From: Patescibacteria group bacterium
GTDB lineage: Bacteria > Patescibacteriota > Patescibacteriia > UBA9570
Assembly: GCA_041665365.1 (NCBI GenBank)
Contig: JBAYIY010000009.1
Location: 1-61,723 of the forward strand
Direction: 5' to 3'
DNA length: 61,723 nucleotides
Shown: piece by piece, positions 3,074 through 34,873 of the stretch
Layout: each line of letters starts with the position of its first letter
How positions within the stretch are numbered: position 1 is the stretch's first letter
Program-made: the position numbers and the translations under genes
The notes under the pieces: generated by a model
The model's input: only the letters and a program-made list of their open reading frames with translations
Database searches by the model: none
Told to the model about the DNA's origin: nothing

Positions 3074-4570
3074 TTATAGATCGTATCCGGTGTACGATAA
3101 ATTGAAGCTTTTGTTGATGAGGGGGAAATCGGGCACCATGTTATGCAAGCCGGCGTGACTTAATAGTGTCCAGTTAATGAAGGATGGATCCTGTGGTGCC
3201 ACTCGGGAGAGGGTACCAGTTTTATCAGTGGTTACAAAATAGAGTATTTCGCCTCTCCAACCCTCCACTAGCGCTGTGGCCACGGAATTGTTTTTTAATG
3301 CTCCTACTTTTTGTTTGATTGACCCAGTTGGTAATGCTTTTAAAGCCTGGTCAATTAATTCAAGTGCTGTAAATACTTCTTTAACACGAACGTAAAATCT
3401 GGCATAGACATCACCACTTTGCTCGGTAGCAATGGTGGGTAACTTAATTTCTGTATAAGCCGCGTAAGGAAAATCAATCCGCACATCATGCGCAATACCA
3501 GTGGCTTTAGCAGCCACACCGGTTGCTCCGCAGCGCAATACAATCTCCTGTGTAATTTTACCAGTTCCAGTGAGACGATTAAGCAGTGTGCCACTACCTT
3601 TAGCAATGGCCAATACTTCCATAAAATCTTGTTTAATGTCAACCAACTCAACACGCAAAAGTTTTGCGGCAGCACTAGTAATATCTTGTGTGACACCGCC
3701 GCAAATATTAACTCCGCGTAAAAACCGGTTACCGGTTAAGCGCTGATTGATTTGCATAATTCTTTCCCGCAGTCTGGCGCCATGTGCTCCACCAAAATTG
3801 TAGCCAGTATCCAACATGATGGCACCAATATCACCGAAATGATTGGCTAGTCTTTCAAGTTCAGCATAGATCACACGTAAGTAATTGGCACGATTTGGAG
3901 GTGTAGTATCAGATAGTTGTTCGAGTGCTAAACAATAGGCCAAGGCATGACTAAAAGAACTATCTCCGGAAATTTTCTCAGCTAAGCTAATTGTTTTATC
4001 AAGCGGCAATTGTTCAAATAATTTTTCACTGCCTTTATGAGTGTAACCCAACTTTGGTTCAAGCAGCCTGATGGCTTCTCCCATAACACTAAAACGAAAA
4101 TGACCCGGTTCGATAATTCCAGCATGAATGGGGCCTACGGGAATTTCGTATATCCCCTCTTCTGGGAGCGTGGTAAATTCATATTGTCCAGCAGTAACAT
4201 TATCTGGTCGTGTCTGCCAATTAAAATCCTTACGTAATGGGAATTTATCGGTTGGCCAATTGTCGTGGAGAATAAGTTGTCGTTGATCGGCCAGGCCATC
4301 GGCCTTAAGACCAAAAAAGGTTAAAAGCTTCCTTTCGTAATAACTGGCGGCGGGTAGCAGTTTGGATAAAGACGGAAAATGTTGGTTATCAGCTATGGAC
4401 AGACACAAAATTACCTCCCCAAATACATACCAGATTTTATCATCAGAGGCAGTGATCAATTTCAAACTTAGATGCTTAACTGTAATCAATTCTGTTACAA
4501 CATTTAGTAATTTTTCAGGTGTAACATTAATTATTTCTGTCGGCATCATATTAGTATTGTACCGCAACAT
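3074..4570 (-). CDS. Group-4 [NiFe]-hydrogenase large-subunit homologue (HycE/HyfG, NuoC-NuoD fusion type) lacking all four Ni-Fe cysteine ligands
   Basis: 498 aa. IPVGPIHAGIIEPGHFRFS, LGYTHKG and RLANHFGDIG are family motifs. The N-terminal CxxC position reads SGDS (aa 201-204). The C-terminal DPCxxC position reads NLSYTG (aa 490-495). An alternative start is MMPTE at 4549, just after the upstream stop. Confidence 0.8.
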   Translation of the reverse strand: MLRYNTNMMPTEIINVTPEKLLNVVTELITVKHLSLKLITASDDKIWYVFGEVILCLSIADNQHFPSLSKLLPAASYYERKLLTFFGLKADGLADQRQLILHDNWPTDKFPLRKDFNWQTRPDNVTAGQYEFTTLPEEGIYEIPVGPIHAGIIEPGHFRFSVMGEAIRLLEPKLGYTHKGSEKLFEQLPLDKTISLAEKISGDSSFSHALAYCLALEQLSDTTPPNRANYLRVIYAELERLANHFGDIGAIMLDTGYNFGGAHGARLRERIMQINQRLTGNRFLRGVNICGGVTQDITSAAAKLLRVELVDIKQDFMEVLAIAKGSGTLLNRLTGTGKITQEIVLRCGATGVAAKATGIAHDVRIDFPYAAYTEIKLPTIATEQSGDVYARFYVRVKEVFTALELIDQALKALPTGSIKQKVGALKNNSVATALVEGWRGEILYFVTTDKTGTLSRVAPQDPSFINWTLLSHAGLHNMVPDFPLINKSFNLSYTGYDL

Positions 4571-5993
4571 TATTGATTAAAATCTGTAAAAAGGGTGGCA
4601 GCCAAAAACCCAAATATAACACTATAACGAGCAGTGCTAGCGGTGGTAGAATCAGCCAGACACTTTCTTTGGTAGCTACTAGTTGAGTTGGTTTTTCACC
4701 GAACATCATCGCGGAGGTGTGTTTTAAAAAGCCAATAAATAAAACGGCCATGAGCAACAAGACCAGGACGGTACTGACTGGATAGGTTTTGATGCCGATA
4801 GCAAGAATGGATAATTTGGTTAGAAAAATACCAACGGGTGGTGCCCCAGTAATGGCAAAAAAACCAGCCAAAAATAGCCCACCCGTAATTGGAATGGCAG
4901 TCAAAACGCCCTTAACATTGGCAATTTTGGTAGAACTATAATTTAAAAATATTGTACCAGAGGCTAGAAATAAAGCCGATTTAATAAACGCGTGGTACAT
5001 CATGTGAAAAACCGCCGCCAGTGCGCCTAAGCCACCCAGACCAAAGCCGAGCAATATAATTCCCATATTCTCAACACTGGAATAGGCTAACAAACGTTTG
5101 TAATTTTTTTGCGTAAAAATAATCAGTGCGGCAAACAAAATTGAAACACCACCAAATAATAAAAATAGGTGTCCGGTAAAATCCGGTCCAATCACCAGGT
5201 CGGTAATTAACTTAAATCTTAATACCGCCATCAAAGCGACATTCAACAAAACACCCGAGAGCAGTGCCGAAATTGGTACGGGGGCTTTGCTATGGGCATC
5301 CGGTAACCAGGTATGCATGGGAGCAAGACCAACTTTTGTGCCATAGCCAACTAAGACAAAAATAAAAGCGATGCGTGCGATCACCGGATCAAGGTGTGTG
5401 GCGGCTATTGCCAAACCTTGCCAACTGATAAACCCACTAGTCAGGTTTGCCTCGATCGACGTGAAATATAATAAGGTGCCGAAGAAGCCTAATAATAATC
5501 CAATAGAATTAATAATCAGATATTTCCAGGCGGCTTCGGTAGCGGTCGGTTTGTTATAAAAACTAATCAAAAATGCCGTGGCTAAGGTAGTTGCTTCAAT
5601 TGAGATCCAAGTAAAAATTGGACTACTCGACGATACCGCTAAGAACATCGCCATCATAAAGAGATTGAGTAATAAATAGTAGTGTTGCACCTGCTTATAA
5701 CTAATAATATTTTTAGCAGTTTCCGTTCTGAGGTACGGAATAGAATAAGCCACGGTCGCCAAACTAATACAGGCAATAATCAACAGCAGTAGGGCGCCCA
5801 AACTATCAACTGAAAAAAATGTCAAGGCATCATAACTGCCTAGAGCGGCCACCGTTTGTGACACGATAACAGCTTCGACGAGAGCCATAACGGCGGCGAG
5901 TAGTGTAGCGCCTTCAATGAGACGGCGGTCAGTCGCTAATACAGTAATTAACGCGGCTCCGGCTAAGGCTACTAGAATAATGAGTATGGCCAT
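4551..5993 (-). CDS. Antiporter-like membrane subunit (NuoM/NuoN/HyfF/MrpD family)
   Basis: 480 aa polytopic protein with WISIEATTLATAF and GYGTKVGLAPMHTWLPDAHSKAPVPISALLSG motifs. Confidence 0.8.
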   Translation of the reverse strand: MAILIILVALAGAALITVLATDRRLIEGATLLAAVMALVEAVIVSQTVAALGSYDALTFFSVDSLGALLLLIIACISLATVAYSIPYLRTETAKNIISYKQVQHYYLLLNLFMMAMFLAVSSSSPIFTWISIEATTLATAFLISFYNKPTATEAAWKYLIINSIGLLLGFFGTLLYFTSIEANLTSGFISWQGLAIAATHLDPVIARIAFIFVLVGYGTKVGLAPMHTWLPDAHSKAPVPISALLSGVLLNVALMAVLRFKLITDLVIGPDFTGHLFLLFGGVSILFAALIIFTQKNYKRLLAYSSVENMGIILLGFGLGGLGALAAVFHMMYHAFIKSALFLASGTIFLNYSSTKIANVKGVLTAIPITGGLFLAGFFAITGAPPVGIFLTKLSILAIGIKTYPVSTVLVLLLMAVLFIGFLKHTSAMMFGEKPTQLVATKESVWLILPPLALLVIVLYLGFWLPPFLQILINNVAVQY

Positions 5994-5995
5994 AA

Positions 5996-6643
5996 TTAAT
6001 CTTTTAAGTGTTTCATTAAACTGGTATCGAGTGATCCAAAATGTTGATAAATCATTCTTATAAAAACAGTGGCAATAACCAGCCAGATCAGAATATCAAA
6101 AATAATGCCGATTTGCAGGACCGGCGATTGTTCTAGGCCGGCAAAAATAGCAAAAGCGACAATGCCATTTTCCAGAGATAATACACCAATGGCCTGAAAT
6201 AAAGCATCTTTCCGATTAACGATTAAAAACATCGCCATAAAAATAGCGGCCAAGGATAACGCTAATAAACTATGCTGCGCCGGAATAATATTCGTCAGAG
6301 CCGATAAATAATTGGAATGTGCCAGCAGCGTTATTACGGCAATGACAATCAATGTCAGTGGCATGCTTAAATAGTTGCTGACGGAAAAGTTTAGACTGAG
6401 TCGTTTGATTAGACCGGTAAAAAAGACGGTCGCCAAAATAACTTTAACGATCAGGGTTAATAACACGACAATGAGTAAAGAAAAATTATTGGTTTCAAAA
6501 AATGAATTAAGGAGCAGTAGTGTAATAATGACCGATTGAATCACGTAAGCTATTACTGTGCCAAAATTTGTCTCAATTAGGTGTAAGGAAATAATGGTTA
6601 AAAACATTATTCCCAGTAAAACTTGTAAAACAAATATACTCAT
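5996..6643 (-). CDS. HyfE-like small polytopic membrane subunit (NuoK-related)
   Basis: 215 aa and very hydrophobic. Its size and its position between the NuoH-like and HyfF-like genes match hyfE. The conserved Glu in SLENGIVAFA is NuoK-like. Confidence 0.6.
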   Translation of the reverse strand: MSIFVLQVLLGIMFLTIISLHLIETNFGTVIAYVIQSVIITLLLLNSFFETNNFSLLIVVLLTLIVKVILATVFFTGLIKRLSLNFSVSNYLSMPLTLIVIAVITLLAHSNYLSALTNIIPAQHSLLALSLAAIFMAMFLIVNRKDALFQAIGVLSLENGIVAFAIFAGLEQSPVLQIGIIFDILIWLVIATVFIRMIYQHFGSLDTSLMKHLKD

Positions 6644-7572
6644 ACCAGTTGTAATAAACTAATGGCGATCGCACTCAAGATGAAAGACGTAATCAGCAAA
6701 TTGGGTAATTGAAAAAATCTATATTTAGCAATGGTTGATTCAATAATTGCAATAACCAAACAAACCCCAAATACTTTTAACAGCAGTACAATAATTCCGA
6801 ATATAATGGCTAACCCGCTGGTTTGCTGAGCAATGCCATAGGGAAAGAATAAATTAGCCCCTAACGCCGCTAGAATCATGAATTTGTTCGCCGCAGCCCA
6901 TTCCATTAAGGCCAGTCTTTTGCCGGAATATTCAAGAATCATCGCTTCGTGAATCATAGTCAATTCCAAATGAGTCGCCGGATTATCAAATGGGTAGCGA
7001 CCCGTCTCTGCTAATAGCACTATAAAATAGCTGGCCAGGGCAAATATTATCGGCAGAAAAAAGTGGCCGGACAATAACGCGGCAGAGTTGGACATAGCAA
7101 ATAAATTAGTTGTGCCGGTGATTAAAGAAATTGTGAACAGGGCAGTTAAACAACCGGCTTCAGCCAAAGCAAAAACTGTCATTTCCCGGCTTGAACCAAA
7201 GCCACCAAACCCGCTCCCCGTATCCATCCCAGCCAAGGCTAGAAAAAACGTCCCAAGCGCCAACATGTAGATCACGACCAGTAAATCACCGGAATATGGG
7301 TTACTTAAGAAAGCGGCGAATAATGGGATGCTAACACCAATTACCAGTGTGCTGGAGAAAATAATAAATGGTGCAAACCGAAAAATCCAAGACGCCTCAC
7401 GACTAATAATTTCATCTTTATGTAGTAACTTCCAAATATCGCGATACATTTGAAAAATACTGGCACCAGTACGACCCTGTAATTTGGCTTTTATCTTTTT
7501 AATAATACCCAAAGCTAACGGAGATAATAGCGGTATGAAGAGTAATTGAATTAACCAACTAATGACCAGCAT
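6640..7572 (-). CDS. NuoH/HycD/HyfC-like membrane subunit
   Basis: 310 aa. The N-terminus reads KKIKAKLQGRTGASIFQMYRDIWKL, and ETGRYPFDNPATHLELTMIHEAMILEYSG is present. Confidence 0.8.
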   Translation of the reverse strand: MLVISWLIQLLFIPLLSPLALGIIKKIKAKLQGRTGASIFQMYRDIWKLLHKDEIISREASWIFRFAPFIIFSSTLVIGVSIPLFAAFLSNPYSGDLLVVIYMLALGTFFLALAGMDTGSGFGGFGSSREMTVFALAEAGCLTALFTISLITGTTNLFAMSNSAALLSGHFFLPIIFALASYFIVLLAETGRYPFDNPATHLELTMIHEAMILEYSGKRLALMEWAAANKFMILAALGANLFFPYGIAQQTSGLAIIFGIIVLLLKVFGVCLVIAIIESTIAKYRFFQLPNLLITSFILSAIAISLLQLV

Positions 7573-9497
7573 AAAATTATTGTGATAGCAATTAGGATAT
7601 ATAACACATAAACATTGATATTACCACTTTGAATCGTTTTAGCACGCCGTGAAATATTAACGACCACGTGATAGAGTGGCTGATAAAAATATGTTTGGTA
7701 GATGGTTGGTGTGCTGAAGGAAAATATTTGCACGATTGACCTGGCAAAACCGGTGGCCGTAATTTCCATCCGGGCAGTGGGATCTGTACCACAATTCCAA
7801 GTGTCACCAATTGTTGTAGTTTGTTTTTTATAAATTAACTTTTGGATAATTAACCAAACCACCAGTAGTGCCAGCACTAAACTAAGCAAAATAGCTGGCC
7901 CAGAGACAGTGTTTAAATTGATGGCTAGTTTATCAACTGGTAGTTTTTGTATAACAAAAATTTCATGACTGATTTTATTTAAAAGTAACATAATATTATT
8001 GGAAAATACTCCAAACAATAAACACAGTACAGCCAGCGCACCCATGCCCAACTTTAGTGGCCAAGTTGATTCTTTCGCCTGGCTTACTGCTGAACTACGC
8101 GGTCGCGCTAAGAAAGTTGCGCCAAAGGCTTTAACAAAGCAGGCCAGAGCCAGACCACCAGTTAAAGCCAGTGCACCGGCGGCTAAAACAAACAATGATT
8201 TTACAAAAACATCGGCTGTGCCCATGCCTTGCAGTAAGGCTTGATAGGTTAACCACTCACTGAAAAAACCATTAAATGGCGGCAAAGCTGAAATGGCCAT
8301 TGATCCAATCAGAAAATAAACAGCTGTTTGCGGCATAAACTTTATCAGCCCGCCATATTTTTCCATGTTGCGCGTGTGCGTTTGATTAATCACCGATCCG
8401 GCACTAAGAAACAGTAAAGATTTAAATGTGGCATGATTTAAAGTATGAAACAACGCTGCCACTAAGGCCAGCACTGCCAAGGCGAGATGGTTGGTAGAAG
8501 AAAAAAACATGGCACTACCTAGTCCGAGTAAAATAATCCCAATATTTTCAATACTGTGATAAGCCAGCAACTTCTTTAAATCATGCTCAGTGAGCGCATA
8601 TAAAACACCCAGTACGGCTGAGGCTGACCCAACTATGAGAATGGTTATTCCCCACCAGGCCGGAATCGGCATAAGTACATCCAGAAATAACCGCACCATC
8701 ATGTAGATACCAGTTTTGATCATGACGCCGGACATTAGTGCGGAAACATGCGACGGTGCGGCGGGATGGGCGCTAGGTAACCAGATATGAAAAGGAATAA
8801 TGCCGGCTTTCGTTCCAAAACCGATTAACGCGCAGACAAAGATGATATCTTTATATACCGCCGGGATCATAGTTACACCAGATTTGATCGTACTAAAATC
8901 AAATGAACCGGTAAATTTGTACATTAATAAAAAAGCCAGAATGATAAAAACCGTCCCAACGTGTGTCATGACCAAGTAAATAAAACCGGCTTTAATATTG
9001 CCCGGTTCGTTGCGATCATATACCACAAGAAAATATGAGGCGATGGACATAATTTCCCAGGCCATCAAAAAGAACAAGGCTTGGCTCGATGACACAACCA
9101 AAATCATGCCAACAATGAAAAGGTGATAAAAGAATCCTAAAGATCCAAGGTTATATTTACTATAATAGTGTTTGATGTAGCCCAGACCGTAAATTGAACA
9201 AAACAACGCAATTAAAGAGATGATGAATATGAAGAAAGCCGCTAGTTTATCAATGTGAAATGAGGCTGAGAGCAATGGAAACAAACTCGACTGTGCGGTT
9301 AAAACCACTGCCTGACTTTTATTAAATGCACCAATCGCAAAAAGAATTCCCCAACCGGCCGCCAAAATTCCCCAACCATTTTGCCAACCATTGGCTAGAT
9401 TATTATTTTTTTGGCAGACTAAAGACCCGAGTGCACCGCAGACATAAAATGCCAGTAAAATAATGAAACCAGTGGGAGATGAAATAAAACTTAACAT
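7551..9497 (-). CDS. NuoL/HycC/HyfB-like antiporter-type membrane subunit
   Basis: 648 aa with AWEIMSIASYFLV and GFGTKAGIIPFHIWLPSAHPAAPSHVSALMSG, plus a long C-terminal extension. Confidence 0.8.
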   Translation of the reverse strand: MLSFISSPTGFIILLAFYVCGALGSLVCQKNNNLANGWQNGWGILAAGWGILFAIGAFNKSQAVVLTAQSSLFPLLSASFHIDKLAAFFIFIISLIALFCSIYGLGYIKHYYSKYNLGSLGFFYHLFIVGMILVVSSSQALFFLMAWEIMSIASYFLVVYDRNEPGNIKAGFIYLVMTHVGTVFIILAFLLMYKFTGSFDFSTIKSGVTMIPAVYKDIIFVCALIGFGTKAGIIPFHIWLPSAHPAAPSHVSALMSGVMIKTGIYMMVRLFLDVLMPIPAWWGITILIVGSASAVLGVLYALTEHDLKKLLAYHSIENIGIILLGLGSAMFFSSTNHLALAVLALVAALFHTLNHATFKSLLFLSAGSVINQTHTRNMEKYGGLIKFMPQTAVYFLIGSMAISALPPFNGFFSEWLTYQALLQGMGTADVFVKSLFVLAAGALALTGGLALACFVKAFGATFLARPRSSAVSQAKESTWPLKLGMGALAVLCLLFGVFSNNIMLLLNKISHEIFVIQKLPVDKLAINLNTVSGPAILLSLVLALLVVWLIIQKLIYKKQTTTIGDTWNCGTDPTARMEITATGFARSIVQIFSFSTPTIYQTYFYQPLYHVVVNISRRAKTIQSGNINVYVLYILIAITIILCWSLVG

Positions 9498-9502
9498 GAT
9501 GA

Positions 9503-10012
9503 TTAATTAAGAATCCGGAGTAAATGAGTTAGAATGGTGAGCGGCGACGGTGGATCCCCTGGGATGCAATAGTTAACTGGGATCACATCGTTCACACCGT
9601 CAGCGCTGGCGTATGATCCGCGATAAATGCCGCCATTAATAGCATCGTCCCCCACCGCTACAACTATCTTAGGGTCAGGTGTCACGGCGTAAGCGTGCCG
9701 TAAAGCCTTGACCATATTACGCGTCACCGGCCCAGTTATCAAGAGCAGGTCGGCGTGTTTCGGTGAGGCGACAAAGTGGATACCAAACCGTTCCACATCA
9801 TAATAACTATTAGTGAGAGCCACCAGTTCTTGTTCGCAGGCATTATCAGACCCAGCATCAATTTGTCTGATCGCTAAAGAACCGTGAAATAATTTTTTGA
9901 CACGCTCATTTATGGCCTCGCCAACAACCAATAAATCTGGCTCAGCCACAGTGTTTGGTGCCGAAATAACAGTAGGTTTTGTTGTGATAATTTTTTTAAA
10001 AAGTCCAATCAT
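9503..10012 (-). CDS. NuoB/HycG-like hydrogenase small-subunit homologue with three of four [4Fe-4S] cysteines replaced by Asp
   Basis: 169 aa. GSDNACE sits where GSCNGCE is expected. SPKHADLLLITGPVT is conserved. AVGDDAINGG sits where AVGxCAxxGG is expected, and IPGDPPSP where IPGCPPRP is expected. Confidence 0.8.
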   Translation of the reverse strand: MIGLFKKIITTKPTVISAPNTVAEPDLLVVGEAINERVKKLFHGSLAIRQIDAGSDNACEQELVALTNSYYDVERFGIHFVASPKHADLLLITGPVTRNMVKALRHAYAVTPDPKIVVAVGDDAINGGIYRGSYASADGVNDVIPVNYCIPGDPPSPLTILTHLLRILN

Positions 10013-10046: not shown

Positions 10047-11477
10047 CTAATTTACTCTAAAATGGCAACCCAAGCTCTTGGTTCGCTGCAAGGCCGCCTG
10101 TAAAATCTGTTCCCCCACCGTGGCCATGTTGTATAACTCTGGCGAACCTTCCTGTTTAATGGTTTTTTTCAAAATCTGCATGGCGGCCAAGCCGGAGGCT
10201 AAGCCAGCCTTTGTGCGCACAATACCGCCCGCTTCCCACATGATATTCTGTAATTGTTGTTTTAAACCAATTAAAGTATCTGAATTATTATTGAATATTT
10301 TAACAGCATGATTATGATTAGGAATATTTTTGTGTTTTTTGGTCGGAGTGATAGATATAATATTTTTCGCGGCTCGAGTAGCAAATACCAAACACTCCAG
10401 TAAAGAGTTACTGGCCAGCCGGTTAGCGCCTTGCACACCGGTTCTGGCGACTTCACCGATGGCATATAAACCCGGCAAAGAGGTTCGACCGGCTGTGTCG
10501 GTAACAACACCACCGCACATGTAATGAGCGACCGGTGTAATTGGAATTAAATCTTTTTCTAAATGAAAATTATCTTTGGCTAAGGCTTTGTATATTCCAG
10601 GAAAGCGTTGTTTGAGAAAGGCTTTAGTTTCATGGCGGAAATCTAGATAGACCAAACCCTGGCGTTGTTGCCGAAATACTGCTCGGCTGACGTAATCACG
10701 CGGCTTTAATTCAGCGACGAATCTTTGGCCGAGGTGATTTACTAAATGAGCACCTTCACCCCGCAAGGCTTCTGAGAGTAAAAAGGGTTGTTGGCCAGGT
10801 AGATAATAAGCCGTGGGATGAAACTGCACAAACTCTAAATCAGACATTTTAGCACCGGCGCGAATAGCCATCGCCATGCCATCTCCGGTTACGACACTAG
10901 GGTTGGAGGTGTAGGGATAAATTTGACCGGCGCCACCAGTAGCCAGCACGACAGCATCAGCGAAATAATGGTTTTTATTGGTTTGCACGCCAATTACTCG
11001 ATTATTTTTTTTAATTACATCTAGCGCAAACTCCCATTCATGAATTGCAATAGCGTGATGTTTTTTTACAGCAGCAATTAAGGCTTGCTCAACAATTTTT
11101 CCGGTCATATCGGTAGCATGGACAATGCGCCGATAACTGTGTCCACCTTCTCGCCCTAAATCCAACTGGCCTTGTGACTTATTAAAAGCCACTCCCAATT
11201 TGATTAGCTCTTTAATCTGAGCCGGTGCTTCATTAACTAATAACTCGACAGATTTTTTTACATTATGATAAGACCCGGCTTTAAGAGTGTCTGCAATATG
11301 TTTACTAAAGTTGTCTTGCGGATCAAACACAGCGGCGATACCACCTTGGGCATAACTAGAACTACTTTCGATAATTTTATTTTTTGTAATCAAAGTGACA
11401 TGACTATGTTCAGCGCAATGTAAGGCGCAATACAAACCAGCCACACCACTACCAATAATAATTACCTCTCGCTTCAT
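10047..11477 (-). CDS. nadB: L-aspartate oxidase
   Basis: 476 aa with the FAD fold VIIIGSGVAGL, plus SSYAQGGIAA, HPTA and GGANRLASNSLLE-type motifs. Confidence 0.9.
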   Translation of the reverse strand: MKREVIIIGSGVAGLYCALHCAEHSHVTLITKNKIIESSSSYAQGGIAAVFDPQDNFSKHIADTLKAGSYHNVKKSVELLVNEAPAQIKELIKLGVAFNKSQGQLDLGREGGHSYRRIVHATDMTGKIVEQALIAAVKKHHAIAIHEWEFALDVIKKNNRVIGVQTNKNHYFADAVVLATGGAGQIYPYTSNPSVVTGDGMAMAIRAGAKMSDLEFVQFHPTAYYLPGQQPFLLSEALRGEGAHLVNHLGQRFVAELKPRDYVSRAVFRQQRQGLVYLDFRHETKAFLKQRFPGIYKALAKDNFHLEKDLIPITPVAHYMCGGVVTDTAGRTSLPGLYAIGEVARTGVQGANRLASNSLLECLVFATRAAKNIISITPTKKHKNIPNHNHAVKIFNNNSDTLIGLKQQLQNIMWEAGGIVRTKAGLASGLAAMQILKKTIKQEGSPELYNMATVGEQILQAALQRTKSLGCHFRVN

Positions 11478-12325
11478 GGAATAATGTCTAAAGAAATATC
11501 TAAGGCTTTAACTGAATGGGTGAGAAAACCCATTGAAATAACATCAACACCAGTTTTAGCATAGATCTTTATATTTGTCAGGTTAATATTACCAGATGCT
11601 TCAAGAATATATTTATTACGAAGTTTATGTTTGGCTAGCCAGTGTACGGCATAGAGCAATTTATTGGGTGAGAAATTATCTAATAATAAGATTTGAAATT
11701 GTGGATATTGCACAACCGCCCGTTTTAATTGAGCAATTGAGTCTATTTCTAATTCACACAATTGTTTACCGAAATTAGCCTTTTTTAGACTGGCATGGTC
11801 GAGTAAGGCTAAATGGTTATCTTTTACCATGATACCATCACCTAAGTGCAGGCGATGAGTTAAGCCGCCTCCTAAACTGACCGCTTTTTTATCTAAGCCA
11901 CCCCAAGCCGTTTTGCGGGTGGCGGCAATTTTTACTTTGTCCTGCACCATTTGCACACATTGTTTAGTCAGTGTGGCAATACCAGATAAGCGTTGTAAAG
12001 TGTTCAAAACTGTCCGTTCACATCTTAAGATACTTCTAGCATTACCTGATAATTTTAAAAGCACGGCTTTTTTACCTAAAGTTACTGAAATATTTTCACG
12101 TTTTAATAGCCAAATAACCTCATCTAAACCGGCTATAACACCCGGTTGTTTTTGAATAATTTGCGCCTGACACTGTTGGTTACGGGAAATCAATTTTTTA
12201 GAAGTATTATCATAGTAGGCATCACTGGCGAGCGCTCCAGCTATATAGCGTTCGACTTGCTCACGATACCACGGGTGCGTCATTGTTAATTCACTACTGC
12301 GATCGTAGTAGCTACTAATGTTCAT
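11474..12325 (-). CDS. nadC: Nicotinate-nucleotide pyrophosphorylase (quinolinate phosphoribosyltransferase)
   Basis: 283 aa with ERTVLNTLQRLSGIAT, ATRKT, HRLHLGDGIMVKDNH and LLDNF. Overlaps both neighbours by 4 nt. Confidence 0.85.
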   Translation of the reverse strand: MNISSYYDRSSELTMTHPWYREQVERYIAGALASDAYYDNTSKKLISRNQQCQAQIIQKQPGVIAGLDEVIWLLKRENISVTLGKKAVLLKLSGNARSILRCERTVLNTLQRLSGIATLTKQCVQMVQDKVKIAATRKTAWGGLDKKAVSLGGGLTHRLHLGDGIMVKDNHLALLDHASLKKANFGKQLCELEIDSIAQLKRAVVQYPQFQILLLDNFSPNKLLYAVHWLAKHKLRNKYILEASGNINLTNIKIYAKTGVDVISMGFLTHSVKALDISLDIIP

Positions 12326-13284
12326 AGGGCAATCATACGATCAATAGCTAGTTTGGCTTTTTGTTGGATGTCATTGGGTATAGTGATAGCAAATTGATTG
12401 TACAGTAAACTATCATAAACTTTTTGCAGGGTGATCTTTTTCATGTATTCACAGATAGCCGTGTCTTTTAGTGGGATATAAGTTTTTTGTGGCGCGGCTC
12501 GCTTCATGCGTTCAATAATACCAACTTCTGTGCCGATAATAAATTCTTTAGCCGGAGATTGTGTTACTTCTTTGATCATGCCGCTAGTAGATAAGACTTT
12601 GGCTGAGGTTAATTGTGCTTGATTCATCATATATAAACATTGACTGATACAGCCACATTCTGGATGTAATAAAATTTCAGCCTGAGGATGCTTAGCTTGT
12701 AAGGTTTTTAAATGTTCCGCTCGAAAGCCGGCGTGAACATGACACTCGCCTGGCCAGATATGTAAATTGTTTCGCTTGGTGATGCGTTGAATGTAAGCCC
12801 CTAAAAACATATCTGGACCAAATAATATTTCTTGATCGGCTGGAATACTTCGCACAATTTTAACTGCGTTAGATGACGTACAACAATAATCCGATAAGGC
12901 TTTAACTGCTGCAGTGGTGTTAACATACATAACAACTTTAGCTTTGGGATGTTCACTTTTCCACTGCACTAATTGATCGGCAGTGATCGAATCGGCCAAA
13001 GAACAACCGGCCGCTAAATCTGGCAACAACACGGTTTTTTCTGGAGCCAAAATTTTGGCGGTTTCGGCCATAAAATGCACTCCACAAAATACAATTGTTG
13101 CAGCCGTGGTGGTGGCAGCTTGCCGTGATAATTCAAGCGAATCACCAATAAAATCGGCCGCATCATAAATTTCCGGCAATTGATAATTATGCGCTAAAAT
13201 AATTGCCCGGCGCTCTTGTTTAAGCTGCAATACCCGTTCCAGCAATGACTGGTTCGATGATTGGTTGGATGCTTGATGGGACAT
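12322..13284 (-). CDS. nadA: Quinolinate synthase
   Basis: 320 aa with ILAHNYQ, FCGVHFMAETAKIL, GCSLADS, YVNTTA and HPECGC. The first 21 codons overlap the nadM 3' end; a TTG at codon 14 is an alternative start. Confidence 0.9.
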   Translation of the reverse strand: MSHQASNQSSNQSLLERVLQLKQERRAIILAHNYQLPEIYDAADFIGDSLELSRQAATTTAATIVFCGVHFMAETAKILAPEKTVLLPDLAAGCSLADSITADQLVQWKSEHPKAKVVMYVNTTAAVKALSDYCCTSSNAVKIVRSIPADQEILFGPDMFLGAYIQRITKRNNLHIWPGECHVHAGFRAEHLKTLQAKHPQAEILLHPECGCISQCLYMMNQAQLTSAKVLSTSGMIKEVTQSPAKEFIIGTEVGIIERMKRAAPQKTYIPLKDTAICEYMKKITLQKVYDSLLYNQFAITIPNDIQQKAKLAIDRMIAL

Positions 13285-13699
13285 AATGTTTCCAAATATC
13301 GTTATGTTGCTTGATCAATCGTCGAATCACTGTACCGTCAATGGACACACTCACGGCTGGATCCAACACAGGAATGCCCTGCTTTCTAAATAAGAGTTGT
13401 ACCAACCGATTGCCACTAATTACTTGATCGAAACCACTTGGGTAAGCAGCATACACGGTTTTCTTAACATGATCAACCCAATGGGCATCATCATGAATAT
13501 CCGGTATGGCAATAACAGGGATACCGGGTAAAACAATTTCAAGGCACTGTTTCCGTTCGGCAAAAGACAATGGATTATTAGTCGTACGCGCGTATTGACT
13601 GCTACCAATTCCCACTAGTATGGTACCGGAAAATTTTTTCAAGACAGATAAGTGACCAAGATGTAAAGGTTGGAATCGTCCAATAAATAATGATGTCAT
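13220..13699 (-). CDS. nadM: Nicotinamide/nicotinate mononucleotide adenylyltransferase, archaeal NadM type
   Basis: 159 aa. The N-terminus FIGRFQPLHLGHL is the (H/T)xGH nucleotidyltransferase motif of the NadM family. The protein is small and single-domain. Confidence 0.75.
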   Translation of the reverse strand: MTSLFIGRFQPLHLGHLSVLKKFSGTILVGIGSSQYARTTNNPLSFAERKQCLEIVLPGIPVIAIPDIHDDAHWVDHVKKTVYAAYPSGFDQVISGNRLVQLLFRKQGIPVLDPAVSVSIDGTVIRRLIKQHNDIWKHYVPSSIQPIIEPVIAGTGIAA

Positions 13700-13703
13700 A
13701 ATA

Positions 13704-14393
13704 TTATAAATGTGGTGGTAGAACTAATTTATGTTGGGCAGATTTTTGTAATTGCTTTATTTTCTCTACAACAGTTAGATTAGAATAATCTTTATCTTTT
13801 AAGACGCTATCGGCCATTTGATAAGTCATACCTAATTCTGTTTCATCTGTTTGGCCAGACCATAAACCAGCCGATGGGGCTTTGGAGATAATCTGCTCGG
13901 GTACACCCAATTGTTTGGCCAACTCCCACACCTGGGTTTTATATAAATGAGCTAACGGTGCAAGATCTACTCCCCCATCACCATACTTAGTAAAGTAACC
14001 TAACTCGAATTCAGTTCTGTTACCCGTTCCCACTACTAACCCACCTAATTCATTCGCCTGCATATACAAAACAGACATTCTTACTCGCGCCTTTAAATTA
14101 CCCAATGATAACGCTGAGATACTTGGCTCAATTTTTTGAAATTCATGAATAATAGGGTCAATATTAATTACCCTATTTGTTATTTTTAATTTACTAATTA
14201 CCAATTTAGCATCATCTAGATCTTGTTGAGTATTAGAGCCAGATGGTAAATAAAAAGAATAAATTTTATTAGTAGATATAGCTTTAGTTAGTAGATAAGC
14301 TACTACTGTTGAATCTACTCCACCACTCAAACCAATCACGGCCGGCTTATCATGTAAGTGTTTTTTTAAGAATGTTACGATTGGTTCAATCAT
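13704..14393 (-). CDS. nadE: NH3-dependent NAD+ synthetase
   Basis: 229 aa with the PP-loop GLSGGVDSTVVA, plus TGNRTEFELGYFTKYGDG and APSAGLW. Confidence 0.85.
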   Translation of the reverse strand: MIEPIVTFLKKHLHDKPAVIGLSGGVDSTVVAYLLTKAISTNKIYSFYLPSGSNTQQDLDDAKLVISKLKITNRVINIDPIIHEFQKIEPSISALSLGNLKARVRMSVLYMQANELGGLVVGTGNRTEFELGYFTKYGDGGVDLAPLAHLYKTQVWELAKQLGVPEQIISKAPSAGLWSGQTDETELGMTYQMADSVLKDKDYSNLTVVEKIKQLQKSAQHKLVLPPHL

Positions 14394-25282: not shown

Positions 25283-28200
25283 CTATTTAAGGGCAGCATT
25301 GAATTGATCTGGTACGAAAACACCATGGTAAGATTTATCGGTAACAATGAATCTATCAAAGTAATTTATTAACTTCGTGTAAGTCTCAGGTGTAAGTTCA
25401 ACCCGCGTTGCAGCACAACGAACATACAATTTATCATGATCTTCTATATAAGTCAGGCCATTGGGTCCGCGAAATTTATCAATATCCGCATGGACACTCA
25501 TAACGTGTTTGACTTCTGTCACAAATTTGGAATAATCCCGCGGTAATTTATCCAAACCAAATTGATCTTGTTCGAATAATCTCATTTCGTGCGGTTCATT
25601 GGCTCGATCCAGCACAGCAAAAAATGACTCACGGTGAAACTCATGATCACTAGAACTTTTCAATTTAGTTTTATATTCAGTCATTAACTCATGATACAAT
25701 TTTTCGCTTAGTGGTGGATGATTACCTGTGACATTATGTAAATCCACCGTGACCTGACCATCGTGTAATCCAAACACCAAACCATTTGGGCTGACAATTT
25801 TATGGTTTTTATCGCTGTTAAGTAGAGTTTTTATATTATCGATAAAAGCACCATGATTTTGTGGTTCACCATTGCCCATGAAATGCTGACCTAAATCCAC
25901 ACTTTTTGGTTCAACTACAACCGGTATAGCCAATGGTTCAGCCACGCGACCAGCGGTTTCACCCGTCCACGATCCGCCACTCTCGGCTCGATAATGTTTT
26001 ACTAATTCTATAGACACAGCTCTTAATTCTGGTTTTTCATATAGCTCCTCAGCGGGTATTTCTTGTAATTCGGGAAACTGATCTGGATTACTATGAACAT
26101 AAGTATATAAACCTGAATCGATATATCGCGCAACACTTTGACCCGGACGCGGTTCTGCATAATCATTAACAAAATTAGTGATTTTCGGATTTACTTCAAC
26201 TGGTTCATGCGGTACAGGCACATCATGTTCATGGCCACGTTCATAAAGATAATCGTTCAAGTGTTCCGGAGCAATTTTTTGTTTAGTGGCGACATCATAA
26301 AACTCAACTTGTTTATGACCACCAACGTCATGCACTGCCACACTGATTTTTTCACTATCCTTAACACCCACATCAAGTAATTTTACATTATGGCCGTTAA
26401 CTTTTACTTCTGTAGAATTCAACAAATGTGACATCTCTCGATCGGATACTTGCCCTTTAATGGCATGAGAGACACCTTCTGTGTGGTGAACGATGTGAGT
26501 TAGATCAGCCGATTGAACAGGTGGTTCTGGTAAAATTGGACCGACAAATGGTATTGGAGTATGTCCACCTGGTGGAGGTATCACAACCGGATTTTCCACT
26601 GGATTAGGTTCAACGTGATCAACTGGTACAGATTCACTTTCCACCCGATGGGCGGCTAAAGATACTAATTCGTCACCAACAAAATAGCCAGCTACAGCAC
26701 CAGTGAAGGCTAGCGCGCCACGAACGCAGGCATGATAACGTTTTTTAGCAGTCGGTGCATCCGGTTCAAGCCGGGCTAAATCTTTAATATTTTTTAAAGC
26801 ACCAATATAGGATAAGGCTTGCTCGTATCGGGTGACGATTTCTTGCATAGCCCTATAATCAGTGGGTGATTTTTGTCTAAAATCATTGTCCTGTAATCGT
26901 TCTTTAAACTTATTCATTTCTTGTCGGCTGTTGAGCACAAAGTTGATCCAACTACCATTCATTGGTTTTCTCAATTCGATATCAAAAAATTTGACTCGCT
27001 TATTCTGTTCAGTAATTGACGTACCTTCAGCCCGGCTGATCAAAGCACGTGCTACTGTGTCGCCAAGTCTAGCGCCAGCCAAAGTTGTCATACCAACTCT
27101 TAAACCAGGCCACTCACGGGCAGCGATACCAATGGATGTAAACACCGCTGAAGTTGCCACAGCTTCTAATACTTCACTTTTATCACCAAATATTTCTTTT
27201 AAAATACGCGATGAAGATTGACTTTGGGCTTTTTCCTGAGCGGCGGTTTTATTCTCCATGTCAACTAAATTCGCCTGAGCTTGGGCAATTCGTTTGTATG
27301 GTTCGGCGACACGATCAAATTCAGCCTGGGCTCTTAATACCGCTTGATAATAAAAAGATTTTTGATCTTCTGATGCACTATAATAGTCTGCTTGTGCTTG
27401 CCTTAAATTATCTGTCTCTGTTTTACAATTATCATCTATTAACTTCCCGTAAATCTCTCCTTGTACATCAGCCTGTGTCAGTGCACCTTTGTCAACAAGT
27501 TCTTTCTCTTTTTGTGTCGCCAACAGCGCCGCGAGAGTTTCTAAAGTGGTTTTTAAAGTAGCTTCGGCTTGGCCTAGTGTCAGGTTACCATCAATGAACT
27601 TCTTTCTACTTTGTTTTATTTGGTTTAATAAAGTAGCCTCATGCCTGCTTTGCTCAGTGGCTTGATTCTGGGTGGTTCTTATTCTATCGGCCATTCTTAC
27701 TCCCGCCAAAAGGCCAATAGTTGGAATAGCACCGATTCCAGTCATGCTAAGTGCTACACCGCCGGCCGCAATAGCACCGAGCCTACCTACGGTTTTTAAA
27801 GTACTCCGTCCAGCGCGTTCTTGCGCGGCGGCTTGTTCAGTAATCAGCATGCGCTGCGCCACAATCACTTGCGCAACTCCTTCTGGACTAATACCAAGTT
27901 TTGTCGCCAAAGCAATAACTTCAGGCAAAGCCTTCAATTCAGTATCAGACTTATTAAGATTTTCAAGAGTAATTACACCAGCCAAGGCTTTGATTACATT
28001 AGTATCAGATTTAATCTCAGCTTGTTCCAAATATTGAGTATTTACTCCGGGTTTTTTAGCCTGCATTTCACGAACAATAGAACGATCAAATTGATCCATT
28101 TCAATTTTCGCTGGATCAAATGAAACAGGATAGTCATCGGGAGCAGTTTTGTAGGCTGTCAATTCAGGTTGACCTAGTTCTTTAAGTCGATCAAGAATTT

Positions 28201-29632
28201 TTGGGTTACGTTGAACAATTTTTTTAATCCAAATATCGTATATGTTAATCTGTCCGGCATCACGGGCATCGTCTAATATTTGATGTAAAGCCCATACATC
28301 TCCCAGTTCAGTGATTTCAATATCATCTTTACGCTCAAGAAATTTTTGTCTGAATTCAGGTAATACTCTAACAAATCTTTCATCAGCCTTTCGATCATTT
28401 AACAACCTAATCCAATCTTCAACACCAACTGCCTTCCAGGCTTCTAAATCCACTGGGTTAATTAACCCATTATCATAAGTATTAGCAAACGCCGTCCGCA
28501 TTAATCTCTCATTCTCTTTATAAGCTAATTTAAAAGCTTCAATTTTTACAACATCATAAGGAACCGGCAAAGGTTCAGTCAGATTACGTGCCGTGGTTAG
28601 ATACATGTCTTTATCCTTTATGATCAAATCCTCTAATGGATCTTTATCATCAGGGATAACAATAATACTACGATCTTTATCATCACCGGCAGTAACACTC
28701 TCATTCTTTCTTAGCTGCTCATTTATTTTATTAGTGGCTGTTTGCATGATTTGTTGTGTCGCAGTGTTAGTGTTGGGTTCATCATTTAAGATTTTTCCCA
28801 TCTCGGCTTCAGAGGTGTATAAATGAATTCCATTTGAAGTAATAACAATATCATCACCATCATCAAGTTCAACCCTTATTACAGCTTCATCACCAACTGT
28901 ATTAATTTTACCTAATAAATCAGTGTTTCTATCCGCATCGACGGTTTGTTTTTCCAGTTTATCGCTACCAGCAAAACGTCGATAAACTCTTGAATCACCT
29001 AAATTTCCAATAATGGCCGTTCTTTTACCATCAGCACGACGAACGATTTTTACAACGGTAGCGGCGGTACTGATCTCGCTACCGGATGGTCTGGCTTGAT
29101 CAACATTATCCTGTTTAATTCGGTCATTTATTTCGTTAAAAACATCCCGCAGCACAGCTTTATAGTCATCGATACTACGACAACTACTGAAATCAATAGT
29201 CTTAATAATATGGCGCGCCATAAGAGCGGCTTCACTGCCACCAACTGCCGTATGAACGCCATCAAAAATACCGTATAATTCCTTACTAGGCTCCATTAAT
29301 ACAACATCTTCGTTTTCATTTTTACCAGGATGTTCAGGGCCAGCTTCTGTTTTGTTACTAATCTTACGTAGGCGTTTTTCAGGATTAGCCACAGCATCAA
29401 TTTTCGTCTCGGCGGCGCGTTGTAAATCGGCGGCATGTTTGTCTGTTTCATACAGTTTTTTACTATCTTCAGGAGTAGCCACACCTCTATATTCACGTTG
29501 TTTTGCGGCAATATATCTACCTAACTCACGAATACCACCTTTAGCTCTGGCAGCGGACATCTCAGCAGAAAAACCAATTGGTCTTTTAGATTCAATTTTC
29601 TTTATTTCTGGTCGTGGCGTTGGGTCAGACAT
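25283..29632 (-). CDS. Giant (1449 aa) membrane protein: degenerate PP2C-like N-domain, helical/coiled-coil region with hydrophobic hairpins, Pro-rich linker, His-rich repeated C-domain
   Basis: A single uninterrupted ORF. PP2C-like motifs are NEDVV, IFDGVHTAVGG, LGDSRVY, ITSNGIH and DKDRSIIVI. TM-like segments are LGAIAAGGVALSMTGIGAIPTIGLLAGV and GALAFTGAVAGYFVG. The linker reads PVVIPPPGGHTPIPFVGPILPEPP. Confidence 0.85.
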   Translation of the reverse strand: MSDPTPRPEIKKIESKRPIGFSAEMSAARAKGGIRELGRYIAAKQREYRGVATPEDSKKLYETDKHAADLQRAAETKIDAVANPEKRLRKISNKTEAGPEHPGKNENEDVVLMEPSKELYGIFDGVHTAVGGSEAALMARHIIKTIDFSSCRSIDDYKAVLRDVFNEINDRIKQDNVDQARPSGSEISTAATVVKIVRRADGKRTAIIGNLGDSRVYRRFAGSDKLEKQTVDADRNTDLLGKINTVGDEAVIRVELDDGDDIVITSNGIHLYTSEAEMGKILNDEPNTNTATQQIMQTATNKINEQLRKNESVTAGDDKDRSIIVIPDDKDPLEDLIIKDKDMYLTTARNLTEPLPVPYDVVKIEAFKLAYKENERLMRTAFANTYDNGLINPVDLEAWKAVGVEDWIRLLNDRKADERFVRVLPEFRQKFLERKDDIEITELGDVWALHQILDDARDAGQINIYDIWIKKIVQRNPKILDRLKELGQPELTAYKTAPDDYPVSFDPAKIEMDQFDRSIVREMQAKKPGVNTQYLEQAEIKSDTNVIKALAGVITLENLNKSDTELKALPEVIALATKLGISPEGVAQVIVAQRMLITEQAAAQERAGRSTLKTVGRLGAIAAGGVALSMTGIGAIPTIGLLAGVRMADRIRTTQNQATEQSRHEATLLNQIKQSRKKFIDGNLTLGQAEATLKTTLETLAALLATQKEKELVDKGALTQADVQGEIYGKLIDDNCKTETDNLRQAQADYYSASEDQKSFYYQAVLRAQAEFDRVAEPYKRIAQAQANLVDMENKTAAQEKAQSQSSSRILKEIFGDKSEVLEAVATSAVFTSIGIAAREWPGLRVGMTTLAGARLGDTVARALISRAEGTSITEQNKRVKFFDIELRKPMNGSWINFVLNSRQEMNKFKERLQDNDFRQKSPTDYRAMQEIVTRYEQALSYIGALKNIKDLARLEPDAPTAKKRYHACVRGALAFTGAVAGYFVGDELVSLAAHRVESESVPVDHVEPNPVENPVVIPPPGGHTPIPFVGPILPEPPVQSADLTHIVHHTEGVSHAIKGQVSDREMSHLLNSTEVKVNGHNVKLLDVGVKDSEKISVAVHDVGGHKQVEFYDVATKQKIAPEHLNDYLYERGHEHDVPVPHEPVEVNPKITNFVNDYAEPRPGQSVARYIDSGLYTYVHSNPDQFPELQEIPAEELYEKPELRAVSIELVKHYRAESGGSWTGETAGRVAEPLAIPVVVEPKSVDLGQHFMGNGEPQNHGAFIDNIKTLLNSDKNHKIVSPNGLVFGLHDGQVTVDLHNVTGNHPPLSEKLYHELMTEYKTKLKSSSDHEFHRESFFAVLDRANEPHEMRLFEQDQFGLDKLPRDYSKFVTEVKHVMSVHADIDKFRGPNGLTYIEDHDKLYVRCAATRVELTPETYTKLINYFDRFIVTDKSYHGVFVPDQFNAALK

Positions 29633-31182: not shown

Positions 31183-31473
31183 ATGGCTTTATTTATTGAC
31201 TGGTTACTGTCTTTCCAGTACTCTATAGGCGCCATGAAATCACCATACCTTATGGCCATGGCTGTTTCTAGCGGAAACATACTTGGTCCTTTACTCCTAT
31301 TTGGAGGCATTGGTTACCTAATAAGTAAGCAAACTGGATCAAATATTTATGTGCTTGCGGGCATATTTGTTGCCTTTATCACATCAAACCTGTTAATTTT
31401 TACAACCACAAGAAAATTTCTTTCCTATTTACAACATGGCCGAGACAACGGACACACAACCGATCACAGCTGA
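31183..31473 (+). CDS. AtpZ/AtpI-like small membrane protein of the ATP synthase operon
   Basis: Two TM helices (ILGPLLLFGGIGYLI, VLAGIFVAFITSNLLIF) directly upstream of atpB. The start may instead be 31234 (MKSPYL...). Confidence 0.6.
   Translation: MALFIDWLLSFQYSIGAMKSPYLMAMAVSSGNILGPLLLFGGIGYLISKQTGSNIYVLAGIFVAFITSNLLIFTTTRKFLSYLQHGRDNGHTTDHS
31196..31224 (+). promoter_or_regulatory. Candidate atp operon promoter TTGACT-17-TACTCT, 9 nt before the internal ATG at 31234
   Basis: Reads TTGACT ggttactgtctttccag TACTCT ataggcgcc ATG. It competes with a weaker TTGAAA-17-ACTTAT at 31143-31171 that would serve the ATG at 31183. Confidence 0.4.
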
Positions 31474-32251: not shown

Positions 32252-32268
32252 TTATTTATATATCTCTT

Positions 32269-32496
32269 ATGGATATCGAAGTTGCAAAAATGTTCGCCGC
32301 CGCCATCGCCGTCAGTGTCGGTTGTGCTGGCCCAGCGATCGCGCAAGGCCTAATGGCTAAACAAACCATGGAATCGATCGGGCGTAATCCCAGTATCGAA
32401 AACACCATATTTAGTAAGTTGGTTATTGCCATGGCTATCACCGAATCGCTCGGTATTTACTCATTGGTTATTGCCTTGCTCATTCTGTTTGTCTAG
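32269..32496 (+). CDS. atpE: F-type ATP synthase subunit c (Q...ES...Y, Na+-type signature)
   Basis: 75 aa hairpin with GPAIAQG, the loop ESIGRNP, and AITESLGIYSLVIAL. Confidence 0.93.
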   Translation: MDIEVAKMFAAAIAVSVGCAGPAIAQGLMAKQTMESIGRNPSIENTIFSKLVIAMAITESLGIYSLVIALLILFV

Positions 32497-32502
32497 TAAT
32501 CT

Positions 32503-32994: not shown

Positions 32995-33376
32995 TGCCCG
33001 TATTTACGCTGAAACTTGGTTTTCCTCTTTGTCTGAGGCACCAAATTCTGACTGGGCAAAGCTGTCGACTAATTACTTACAGCACATTTATCGCCATGGT
33101 CATATAAAATGGCTACCGGAAATTGTCAGATTAATTGCGGAATTAGAACACAAGAAAAATGGCACAACCCCAGTGGTTGTCACTACCGCGCATAATGCTG
33201 ACGAAAATCTCGTGAAACAATTGACAGACAAAATTTTACCCAACACCACCGTTGTCATCGAACAGCGCGTTGATCCAGCCATGCTCGGTGGTATTAAACT
33301 TGCCACCTCAAACCAACGCTGGGATGCCTCAGTGCTGGGACATTTAAACCATTTAGCACATAGCCTTTCTTTATGA
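32984..33376 (+). CDS. atpH: F-type ATP synthase subunit delta (short, 130 aa)
   Basis: [10 protein letters not shown]... and a C-terminal GGIKL motif. I chose the ATG at 32984 rather than the track's TTG at 32969. Overlaps atpF by 11 nt. Confidence 0.8.
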
Positions 33377-34872: not shown

Positions 34873-34873
34873 T

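Follow-up and report, generated by a model that had tools for sequence, protein, structure and literature searches.

What can a membrane complex built on the plan of respiratory complex I do for a cell when the sites that would hold its redox cofactors are gone? The question is raised by six genes on the minus strand of a 61,723-nt stretch of DNA from a Patescibacteria group bacterium (GenBank assembly GCA_041665365.1, contig JBAYIY010000009.1, positions 1 to 61,723; the whole stretch is called the window below). As judged from their sequences, the encoded proteins form a self-contained, L-shaped, energy-converting-hydrogenase-related (Ehr) relative of the group 4 hydrogenases and complex I, and no place where a redox cofactor might bind can be recognised in any of the six. 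The cluster-free state of the small subunit and a linkage to ATP synthase genes define a distinct variant of this known, uncharacterised family.

The six genes were reported, in a preliminary description made from the sequence alone, as intact, abutting or overlapping reading frames on the minus strand, and their positions and the Pfam and NCBIfam annotations bear this out (Table 1). The gene order was also said to mirror the E. coli hyf operon, which needs correction: the small-subunit gene stands first here (I-B-C-E-F-G) and last in hyf. The closest solved structures are HycE, HycC, HycD and HycG of E. coli formate hydrogenlyase (FHL) and the membrane-bound hydrogenase (MBH) of P. furiosus. 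The large subunit matches HycE (7z0s_E) with E=5.7e-64, the HyfB-like subunit matches HycC with E=2.5e-79, the NuoH-like subunit HycD with E=5.2e-40 and the small subunit HycG with E=7.8e-26. HycE is also the top fold match (TM score 0.78) of an AlphaFold2 model of the large subunit (pTM 0.82). This protein begins at 4549 in the public gene calls, which gives 491 aa, and stops where the C-terminus of the mature hydrogenase falls. The C-terminal half of the HyfE-like subunit resembles NuoK, MrpC and MbhG; a profile of 18 homologues matched MbhG (6cfw_G) weakly (E=0.001), and one relative gave one weak match to Pfam Oxidored_q2. An ND3/NuoA-like segment with a conserved Cys, C569, is fused to the HyfB-like subunit. 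In the NuoC-like domain of the large subunit (residues about 44-60) there are two short gaps, of about 7 and 6 residues, relative to all 24 aligned relatives, and AlphaFold2 still models this domain confidently (pLDDT 85-93). The best non-self match of the large subunit is only 62-63% identical, whereas the host GyrB has relatives at 85%. The small subunit modelled by itself came out poorly (pLDDT 61, with its minimum at the former cluster loops), and this model was not used.

In the HMMER alignment with HycE, the four NiFe ligands C241, C244, C531 and C534 correspond to S201, S204, S492 and G495 of the large subunit (HycE residues are numbered as in PMC9474812, with a PDB chain offset of +12). 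The small subunit was aligned with MbhJ (6cfw_J) and HycG (7z0s_G), and three of its four [4Fe-4S] cysteines were found to be Asp: CxxC has become D56..C59, GxC has become D123 and GCPP has become D153, leaving only C59. That both peripheral-arm subunits have lost their metal ligands had been claimed at the outset, with misalignment named as the possible error; the alignments place no Cys at the NiFe positions and a single one at the small-subunit positions, and the claim stands. None of the six cassette proteins contains a CxxC motif, and profile and motif searches of the six found no NADH, flavin or Fe-S binding motif. The NuoB ligands of cluster N2 in complex I are not present in the small subunit. 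Nqo4 H38 and Y87, the quinone head-group residues of T. thermophilus NuoD, are I153 and G202 of the large subunit in an alignment with 2fug_4. The cassette consists of six genes only, with no NuoI, NuoEFG or other electron-input module and no separate NuoA or NuoJ. Compared with sister true hydrogenases, the Ehr-specific changes in the large subunit are C201S, A/V203D, C204S/T/E, E490N, C492S, C495G and R498L. An Ehr-specific invariant Asp, D203, thus lies between the former Cys positions, and the canopy acid has become Asn.

The fate of the remaining functional residues was followed with the list given for FHL in PMC9474812. The large subunit keeps the His of the beta1-beta2 loop and the proton-donating Glu (H149 and E154). 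The path of the substrate proton runs through R439, H244, E398 and K355 (R478, H284, E437 and R395 in HycE), with canopy S283 at N243, and the canopy Asp D529, now N490, was counted as the sole change among the mapped proton-path residues. In the NuoH-like subunit, aligned with HycD, Y102, E130, E138, E189, E203 and E209 are kept, and R108, E199 and E201 are replaced by T, A and H. No variation occurs at E138, E189, H201, E203 or E209 in 67 loci; E130 does not vary within the cofactor-less clade described below and is Glu in 49 of 54 others. The HyfB-like subunit, aligned with HycC, has E148 in transmembrane helix (TM) 5, K230 in TM7, K261 in TM8, H351, H355, K359, E414 in TM12, K456 and the ND3-loop Cys C569, all invariant over 59 loci save K456 (54 of 59). 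The TM7 Lys is missing in E. coli HycC itself, and the Lys, Glu and His residues that the FHL list gives for the antiporter-like subunits and the E-channel were counted as conserved throughout, apart from HycC D354, which is N377 here. In the HyfF-like subunit E133, K220, H227, H330, H334 and K338 are kept in all or nearly all of 76 loci. Its TM12 residue is K393 in the window; 8 of the 14 cofactor-less loci have Lys at this position, and 60 of the 62 that contain the cluster have Glu. Its TM8 position is Asn, not the usual Lys. The HyfE-like subunit has invariant Q36, K67, E158 and N159. Three of the four coupling loops are retained at the residues checked, namely the beta1-beta2 loop (H149/E154), the ND1 loop (E203/E209) and the ND3 loop (C569), the fourth being the NDUFS7/PSST loop. 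Hardly any of the ion-path residues varies in either the cluster-free or the cluster-containing clades, and by this measure the membrane arm is under strong purifying selection. The signature motifs quoted for the membrane arm in the preliminary description are indeed present, with the canonical TM5 Glu and TM7 Lys. Its broader view, that an ion-translocating machine has been kept without canonical electron transfer, agrees with the lost ligands and the conserved membrane arm.

Table 1. Features of the window, with the six cassette genes first
Feature	Position	Strand	Basis or remark
Small subunit, NuoB/HycG/MbhJ-like, 169 aa	9503-10012	minus	Pfam PF01058 (Oxidored_q6/NuoB), 82.8 bits
HyfB/HycC/NuoL-like antiporter-like subunit, 648 aa, with ND3-like C-terminal extension	7551-9497	minus	NCBIfam hydrogenase-4 subunit B, 642 bits
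NuoH/HycD-like membrane anchor with E-channel, 310 aa	6640-7572	minus	Pfam PF00146 (NADHdh/NuoH)
HyfE-like membrane subunit, 215 aa	5996-6643	minus	NCBIfam hydrogenase-4 membrane subunit HyfE, 51.7 bits, under cut-off
HyfF/NuoM/N-like antiporter-like subunit, 480 aa	4551-5993	minus	NCBIfam hydrogenase-4 subunit F, 395 bits
Large subunit, HycE-like NuoC+NuoD fusion, 498 aa	3074-4570	minus	Pfam PF00329 (Complex1_30kDa) and PF00346 (Complex1_49kDa)
De novo NAD pathway, nadE-nadD-nadA-nadC-nadB	10047-14393	minus	Directly upstream of the cassette
F1Fo ATP synthase operon: a, c, b, delta, alpha, gamma, beta, epsilon	31436-37574	plus	Pfam annotation and translations
tRNA-Pro(CGG)	2919-2992	minus	In the 185-nt gap after the large-subunit gene; sole tRNA and sole Rfam match in the window

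An Ehr, as defined by Marreiros et al. 2013 in the account given by PMC6349859, has a homologue of the NiFe large subunit without the Ni/Fe-coordinating residues, and such relatives of the group 4 hydrogenases are found in many phyla (PMC6349859, PMC10284858, 10.1101/765248). The Ehr-type identity first proposed for the window complex is upheld by a large subunit homologous to those of group 4 and to NuoD (PF00346 with PF00329, and the HycE match), by the absence of the Ni/Fe residues and by the NuoB-, NuoH- and antiporter-like genes alongside. The marks of group 4a (Hyf) are absent: the L1 and L2 CxxC motifs and the proximal [4Fe-4S] site are missing, as are ferredoxin subunits, formate dehydrogenase, hyp and hycI in the window and in related flanks. 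The idea that it is an undescribed system has to be given up, because a clade without Ni ligands has been reported from the candidate phyla radiation (CPR). Danczak et al. 2017 (PMC5581439) described a CPR 'six-subunit Nqo-like/hydrogenase' without Ni sites or maturation genes, and Jaffe et al. 2020 (PMC7304191) described a monophyletic CPR Ehr clade without the NiFe cysteines. In our own neighbour-joining tree the window sequence groups with CPR sequences, apart from other Ehr, and the nearest homologues of the complex come from named Patescibacteria lineages. The window complex is almost certainly the same entity as the complexes of these two reports. In the searchable literature on Ehr and on CPR/Patescibacteria, which does not include Marreiros et al. 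2013, we found no mention of the cluster state of the small subunit; the cluster-free clade, its constant acidic quartet and the linkage to atp genes appear unreported there.

To place the window complex among its relatives, two large-subunit motifs were scanned in species-representative genomes, where at least 591 stretches matched and 80 loci were analysed; a metagenome scan gave 80 further loci. Nearly all large subunits surveyed carry the Ehr signature S-G-D-[S/T/E/N] ... N-L-S-Y-x-G, and three loci of the genome set have CCCC in this subunit and are true hydrogenases. The more distant relatives keep CCCC in the small subunit wherever its sequence could be read (137 loci, one of them with PCCC). 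Many of these cluster-containing small subunits have two CxxCxxCxxxC motifs, that is, a fused ferredoxin domain of the HyfH/NuoI type (2x[4Fe-4S]); others, of about 285 aa, have 8-13 Cys and no canonical motif, and some relatives have a separate HyfH-like gene. The small-subunit ORFs on which this observation rests are those of loci L028, L036, L044, L048, L049, L051, L058, L064, L067 and L071. The cofactor-less loci have DCDD, TCDD, DCGD, DCDN, SEGD, TEGD or TEDD at the four positions, and a neighbour-joining tree of the large subunit unites all 14 of them in the genome set in a single clade. This clade alone is marked by the lost small-subunit cluster. Its contigs are labelled Daviesbacteria, Saccharibacteria, Magasanikbacteria, Falkowbacteria and other Patescibacteria, with a few labelled Firestonebacteria, Fibrobacteria, Endomicrobiales and Bdellovibrionales. 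A second, different Hyf-like cluster lies a few kb downstream of the cofactor-less cassette, among Fibrobacteres-type genes, at L089:13550-21575 and L006:10505-14042. Since contigs of this type carry the cassette, the clade is not confined to the CPR and can coexist with a relative. Each member has the same six genes with the small-subunit gene first, in otherwise unrelated flanks. A large-subunit remodelling that would accompany the loss was looked for, and there were no clade-specific fixed differences; the selected function perhaps never depended on the cluster.

Does the complex still transfer electrons, either with a partner encoded elsewhere or through an unconventional cluster or metal held by Asp? 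Danczak et al. 2017 (PMC5581439) proposed for Kaiserbacteria a route from NADH through the complex and a cupredoxin to NirK, and the Ehr of other phyla do keep the cluster, some with the fused ferredoxin domains. The 120 closest small subunits in the protein database (92 DCDD, 17 DCDN, 5 TCDD, 6 other and no CCCC) have an invariant D123 and nearly invariant D56 and C59, which could be read in the same way. Asp is known as a ligand of Fe-S clusters from a small number of proteins. Ligation by one Cys and three Asp would nevertheless be unprecedented, and the last Cys has itself given way to A, I, P or E in certain members, the S/T-E-G-D subclade being without any Cys at these positions. The former quartet always holds two or three acidic residues, and the individual residues vary (D/T/S; C/E/A/I/P; D/G; D/N). 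A strict substitute metal site at D/C/D/D was accordingly rejected: the residues vary between and within subclades, and only the acidic count is constant. With the missing NADH, flavin and Fe-S motifs, the vanished quinone-site residues and the lack of a conserved redox partner near 25 related cassettes, continued electron transfer appears improbable. The NADH-driven role of Danczak 2017 in particular seems very unlikely for proteins with these sequences, and our results weigh against the published path to nitrite reductase.

A second doubt is whether the complex moves ions at all. It could be a relic or scaffold without transport, serving membrane organisation or the assembly or regulation of ATP synthase, or it could be nearing loss. 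The stepwise loss of cofactors resembles degeneration, the distribution in the CPR is patchy (PMC7304191), the NuoC-like domain of the window has suffered two deletions relative to its relatives, and one related contig has a single-base frameshift in the small-subunit gene (L091:4284-4842, among Fibrobacter-type neighbours). To judge by its name, the contig was probably assembled from long reads, and the frameshift may reflect either a fault of the assembly or a true pseudogene. Decay of the orthologues had been named beforehand as a sign of a dying relic, and we found the six-gene cassette intact in essentially every locus. The split HycD gene of L002 is no case of decay, as the gap is a run of N in a scaffold. 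The charged ion-path residues are almost all invariant across deep lineages, and sequence conservation is high despite strong reductive pressure on the genome: mean column identity across CPR lineages reaches 69% in the large subunit and 76% in the small one, and the latter is better conserved than the other five proteins. Three samples yielded the same strain (at least 99.8% identity) with the cassette intact. We therefore consider a non-transporting relic highly improbable, and this reading and that of electron transfer are both poorly supported.

More can be learned from the neighbours of the cassette in related genomes. A survey of these had been proposed in the preliminary description, and an all-against-all comparison of the flanking ORFs in both collections turned up ATP synthase genes within the fetched flanks. 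Such genes lie beside 8 of the 26 cofactor-less cassettes and beside none of the 137 that keep the cluster (Fisher p=1.5e-7). In L009, L014, L066, L094 and L156, atpC lies directly upstream on the same strand, and in L098 atpB follows the cassette. In a Daviesbacteria contig (L010:2923-20651) the cassette and about 5 kb of other DNA lie between atpD and atpC in opposite orientation, so that the atp operon is split. Linked loci occur in both the DCDD-type and the S/T-E-G-D-type subclades and thus do not represent one inherited arrangement. Besides ATP synthase, the flanks of related loci hold no conserved neighbouring enzyme or transporter. Genes for a ferredoxin subunit or Hyp proteins, which had been expected to travel with the locus if the idea of a cofactor-free complex were wrong, were absent beside the cassette in 25 related loci, as were those for formate dehydrogenase. 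From the atp linkage we infer that the F1Fo ATP synthase is a functional partner of the cassette.

As the most economical mechanism, we tentatively propose that the complex is a redox-independent ion converter that would exchange a cation for protons in the manner of Mrp and work with the F1Fo ATPase, although we think it somewhat more apt to fail than to hold. A continuous charged axis would run through both antiporter-like proteins, the putatively NuoK-like one and the acidic E-channel in the NuoH-like one. Along it protons could be swapped for Na+ or K+, as they are by Mrp and by deactive complex I. The latter is a direct precedent: with its redox turnover switched off, complex I exchanges Na+ for H+ (PMC3464577). 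Powered by ATP from fermentation, the F1Fo ATPase would provide the proton gradient, and the pair would allow cells that do not respire to expel cations at the cost of ATP, to control their pH and to maintain a membrane potential that they can use. The cofactor-free NuoB/NuoCD cap would have been retained because it seals the E-channel on the cytoplasmic side and, by way of the conserved coupling loops, acts as its gate. Protons might enter or leave on that side along what was once the path of the substrate proton (R439-N490-H244-E398-K355 to E154), and the two or three carboxylates at the former ligand positions may stand in for the negative charge of the lost cluster.

Several points weigh against this proposal. 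The atp linkage supports a general role in ion gradients, and it does not separate a consumer of the gradient from a producer. In the window itself the atp operon is complete and lies 21 kb from the cassette on the opposite strand. Genes for MrpB, MrpE, MrpF and MrpG were not found in or beside the cassette. The transported ion and the antiport itself are predicted from sequence. The c subunits encoded near the cassettes of L156 and L098 look proton-type (no Gln, E-A), and that of the window (32269-32496) has Q26, E59-S60 and Y64. We take its Q..E-S..Y pattern to resemble the Na+-binding signature, except for a Leu at the position of I. tartaricus T67. As a clue to ion specificity, a Na+-type ATP synthase was set aside as uninformative, since the c subunits differ between loci. 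Finally, a plain antiporter has no obvious need of a peripheral cap, and yet it is a cap protein, the small subunit, that is the most conserved of the six.

In another reading, the remodelled NiFe pocket (S201, D203, S204, N490 and S492 with E154, R439 and H244) binds a small polar or ionic substrate and couples a non-redox reaction, or the binding alone, to ion translocation. Protonation-dependent chemistry or an interconversion of the CO2/bicarbonate type would be examples, and the reaction would either power a primary pump whose gradient the ATP synthase uses or be driven by the gradient itself. Conservation of the pocket and of the path that brings protons to it is as strict as in true hydrogenases, the invariant D203 and the canopy Asn are specific to Ehr, and the residues retained in three of the four loops that couple redox chemistry to pumping seem needless for a plain antiporter. 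The conservation of the small subunit fits this reading, and the adjacency of atp genes suits a pump that feeds the synthase equally well. However, no candidate substrate is at hand, and the ATP synthase is the only conserved neighbour. Most pocket residues are inherited unchanged from the sister true hydrogenases and may be structural, and non-redox catalysis at a NiFe site is without precedent. We regard this reading as unlikely, and less plausible than the redox-independent cation/proton exchange proposed above.

What would such a complex mean for its host? The CPR/Patescibacteria make up a large share of bacterial diversity and have no respiratory chain; the complex is a concrete candidate for what energises their membranes. 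It seems rather doubtful, though worth stating, that we are dealing with an unrecognised class of machine, in which the coupling apparatus of complex I is driven by non-redox chemistry or ligand binding at the former NiFe pocket, or forms a functional unit with the F1Fo ATP synthase; either would give a non-respiring CPR cell its membrane potential. If true, the complex would be a natural 'redox-dead' model of how the loops of the peripheral arm drive the proton pumps of complex I. For research on complex I it offers a natural experiment, in which the redox centres are lost and the checked coupling-loop residues, the E-channel and the antiporter axis are kept, and which can show what the coupling elements do without electron transfer. 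The Ehr family splits into cluster-containing and cluster-free types that deserve separate annotation; at present such proteins are annotated as 'NADH-quinone oxidoreductase subunit' or 'Ni,Fe-hydrogenase III'.

The host GyrB is nearest to Candidatus Kerfeldbacteria and other Patescibacteria, which identifies a CPR genome. A 365-kb metagenomic contig also represents this organism; about 5 kb of the window (56680-61723) lies beyond the start of the matching ENA contig, and the window thus derives from a different, longer record. The window was at first said to hold no other respiratory gene, which is not so, as it contains the complete F1Fo ATP synthase operon (Table 1). Its lack of HyfA/HyfH/HycF, formate dehydrogenase and hyp/hycI genes was correctly noted; none of these, and no ferredoxin-type or Fe-S assembly gene, was found within the 61.7 kb. 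Only 34 nt separate the end of nadB from the small-subunit gene, and the nad genes and the cassette resemble one transcription unit. A full de novo NAD pathway is an unusual biosynthetic capacity in a CPR genome. The flavoprotein NadB was considered as a general redox partner and rejected, because the linkage of nad genes to the cassette occurs only in this organism and in none of 80 other loci. Downstream of the cassette lie the tRNA gene, a receiver-only response regulator and a TM0106-type nuclease. Scans for promoters and terminators were of no use, the promoter counts being at chance level. Elsewhere in the window, a 1449-aa ORF with no Pfam family on record (25283-29632, minus strand) stands beside a PP2C phosphatase gene, and genes for dTDP-rhamnose, glycosyltransferases and a flippase occupy 49973-56206 and 56680-61723.

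Compared with known systems, the cassette is closest to the Ehr complexes already mentioned. It shares with Ehr of other phyla the subunit set HyfB, NuoH, HyfE, HyfF, NuoCD and NuoB, the ion-path residues, the large-subunit motifs that replace the CxxC pairs and the invariant HAGIIEPG and PDFPLINK. In contrast, those Ehr keep the [4Fe-4S] cysteines of the small subunit, many of them with additional Cys-rich or 2x[4Fe-4S] N-terminal domains, their small-subunit gene usually comes last, and none adjoins ATP synthase genes. The CPR complexes of Danczak 2017 and Jaffe 2020 have the same six-gene cassette in Patescibacteria, without Ni ligands or maturation genes and monophyletic, and the loss of the small-subunit Fe-S ligands and the atp linkage are not described in those reports. 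E. coli FHL-1 (Hyc, 7Z0S) and FHL-2 (Hyf) provide the best sequence and fold matches for four subunits and have the proton path, the E-channel and the checked residues of three coupling loops in common with the window complex, which is without their NiFe site, proximal cluster, HycB/HycF/HyfA/HyfH, FdhF and hyp/hycI. Unlike Hyc, it has a second antiporter-like subunit and the TM7 Lys. MBS/Mbx of P. furiosus has three [4Fe-4S] clusters (in MbsJ and MbsN) with which it reduces its substrate, whereas both cluster ligands and a NuoI-like subunit are missing from the window complex, which matches 6u8y chains only weakly. The Mrp antiporters are likewise free of redox centres and have the Glu/Lys/His axis of MrpA and MrpD and an MrpC subunit, to which the HyfE-like protein may correspond; the HyfB-like protein matches MrpA chains at 3e-43, and the Mrp-type TM5 Glu, TM7 Lys, TM8 Lys and TM12 Lys/Glu are present in the antiporter-like subunits, with Asn at TM8 of the HyfF-like one. 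Mrp is without the NuoH-like subunit and the NuoB/NuoCD cap, and the window complex has both. Deactive mitochondrial complex I (PMC3464577) shares the architecture and a membrane domain that works uncoupled from redox chemistry; its deactive state is reversible, with all cofactors held in place, whereas in the window complex the loss is permanent and encoded in the genes.

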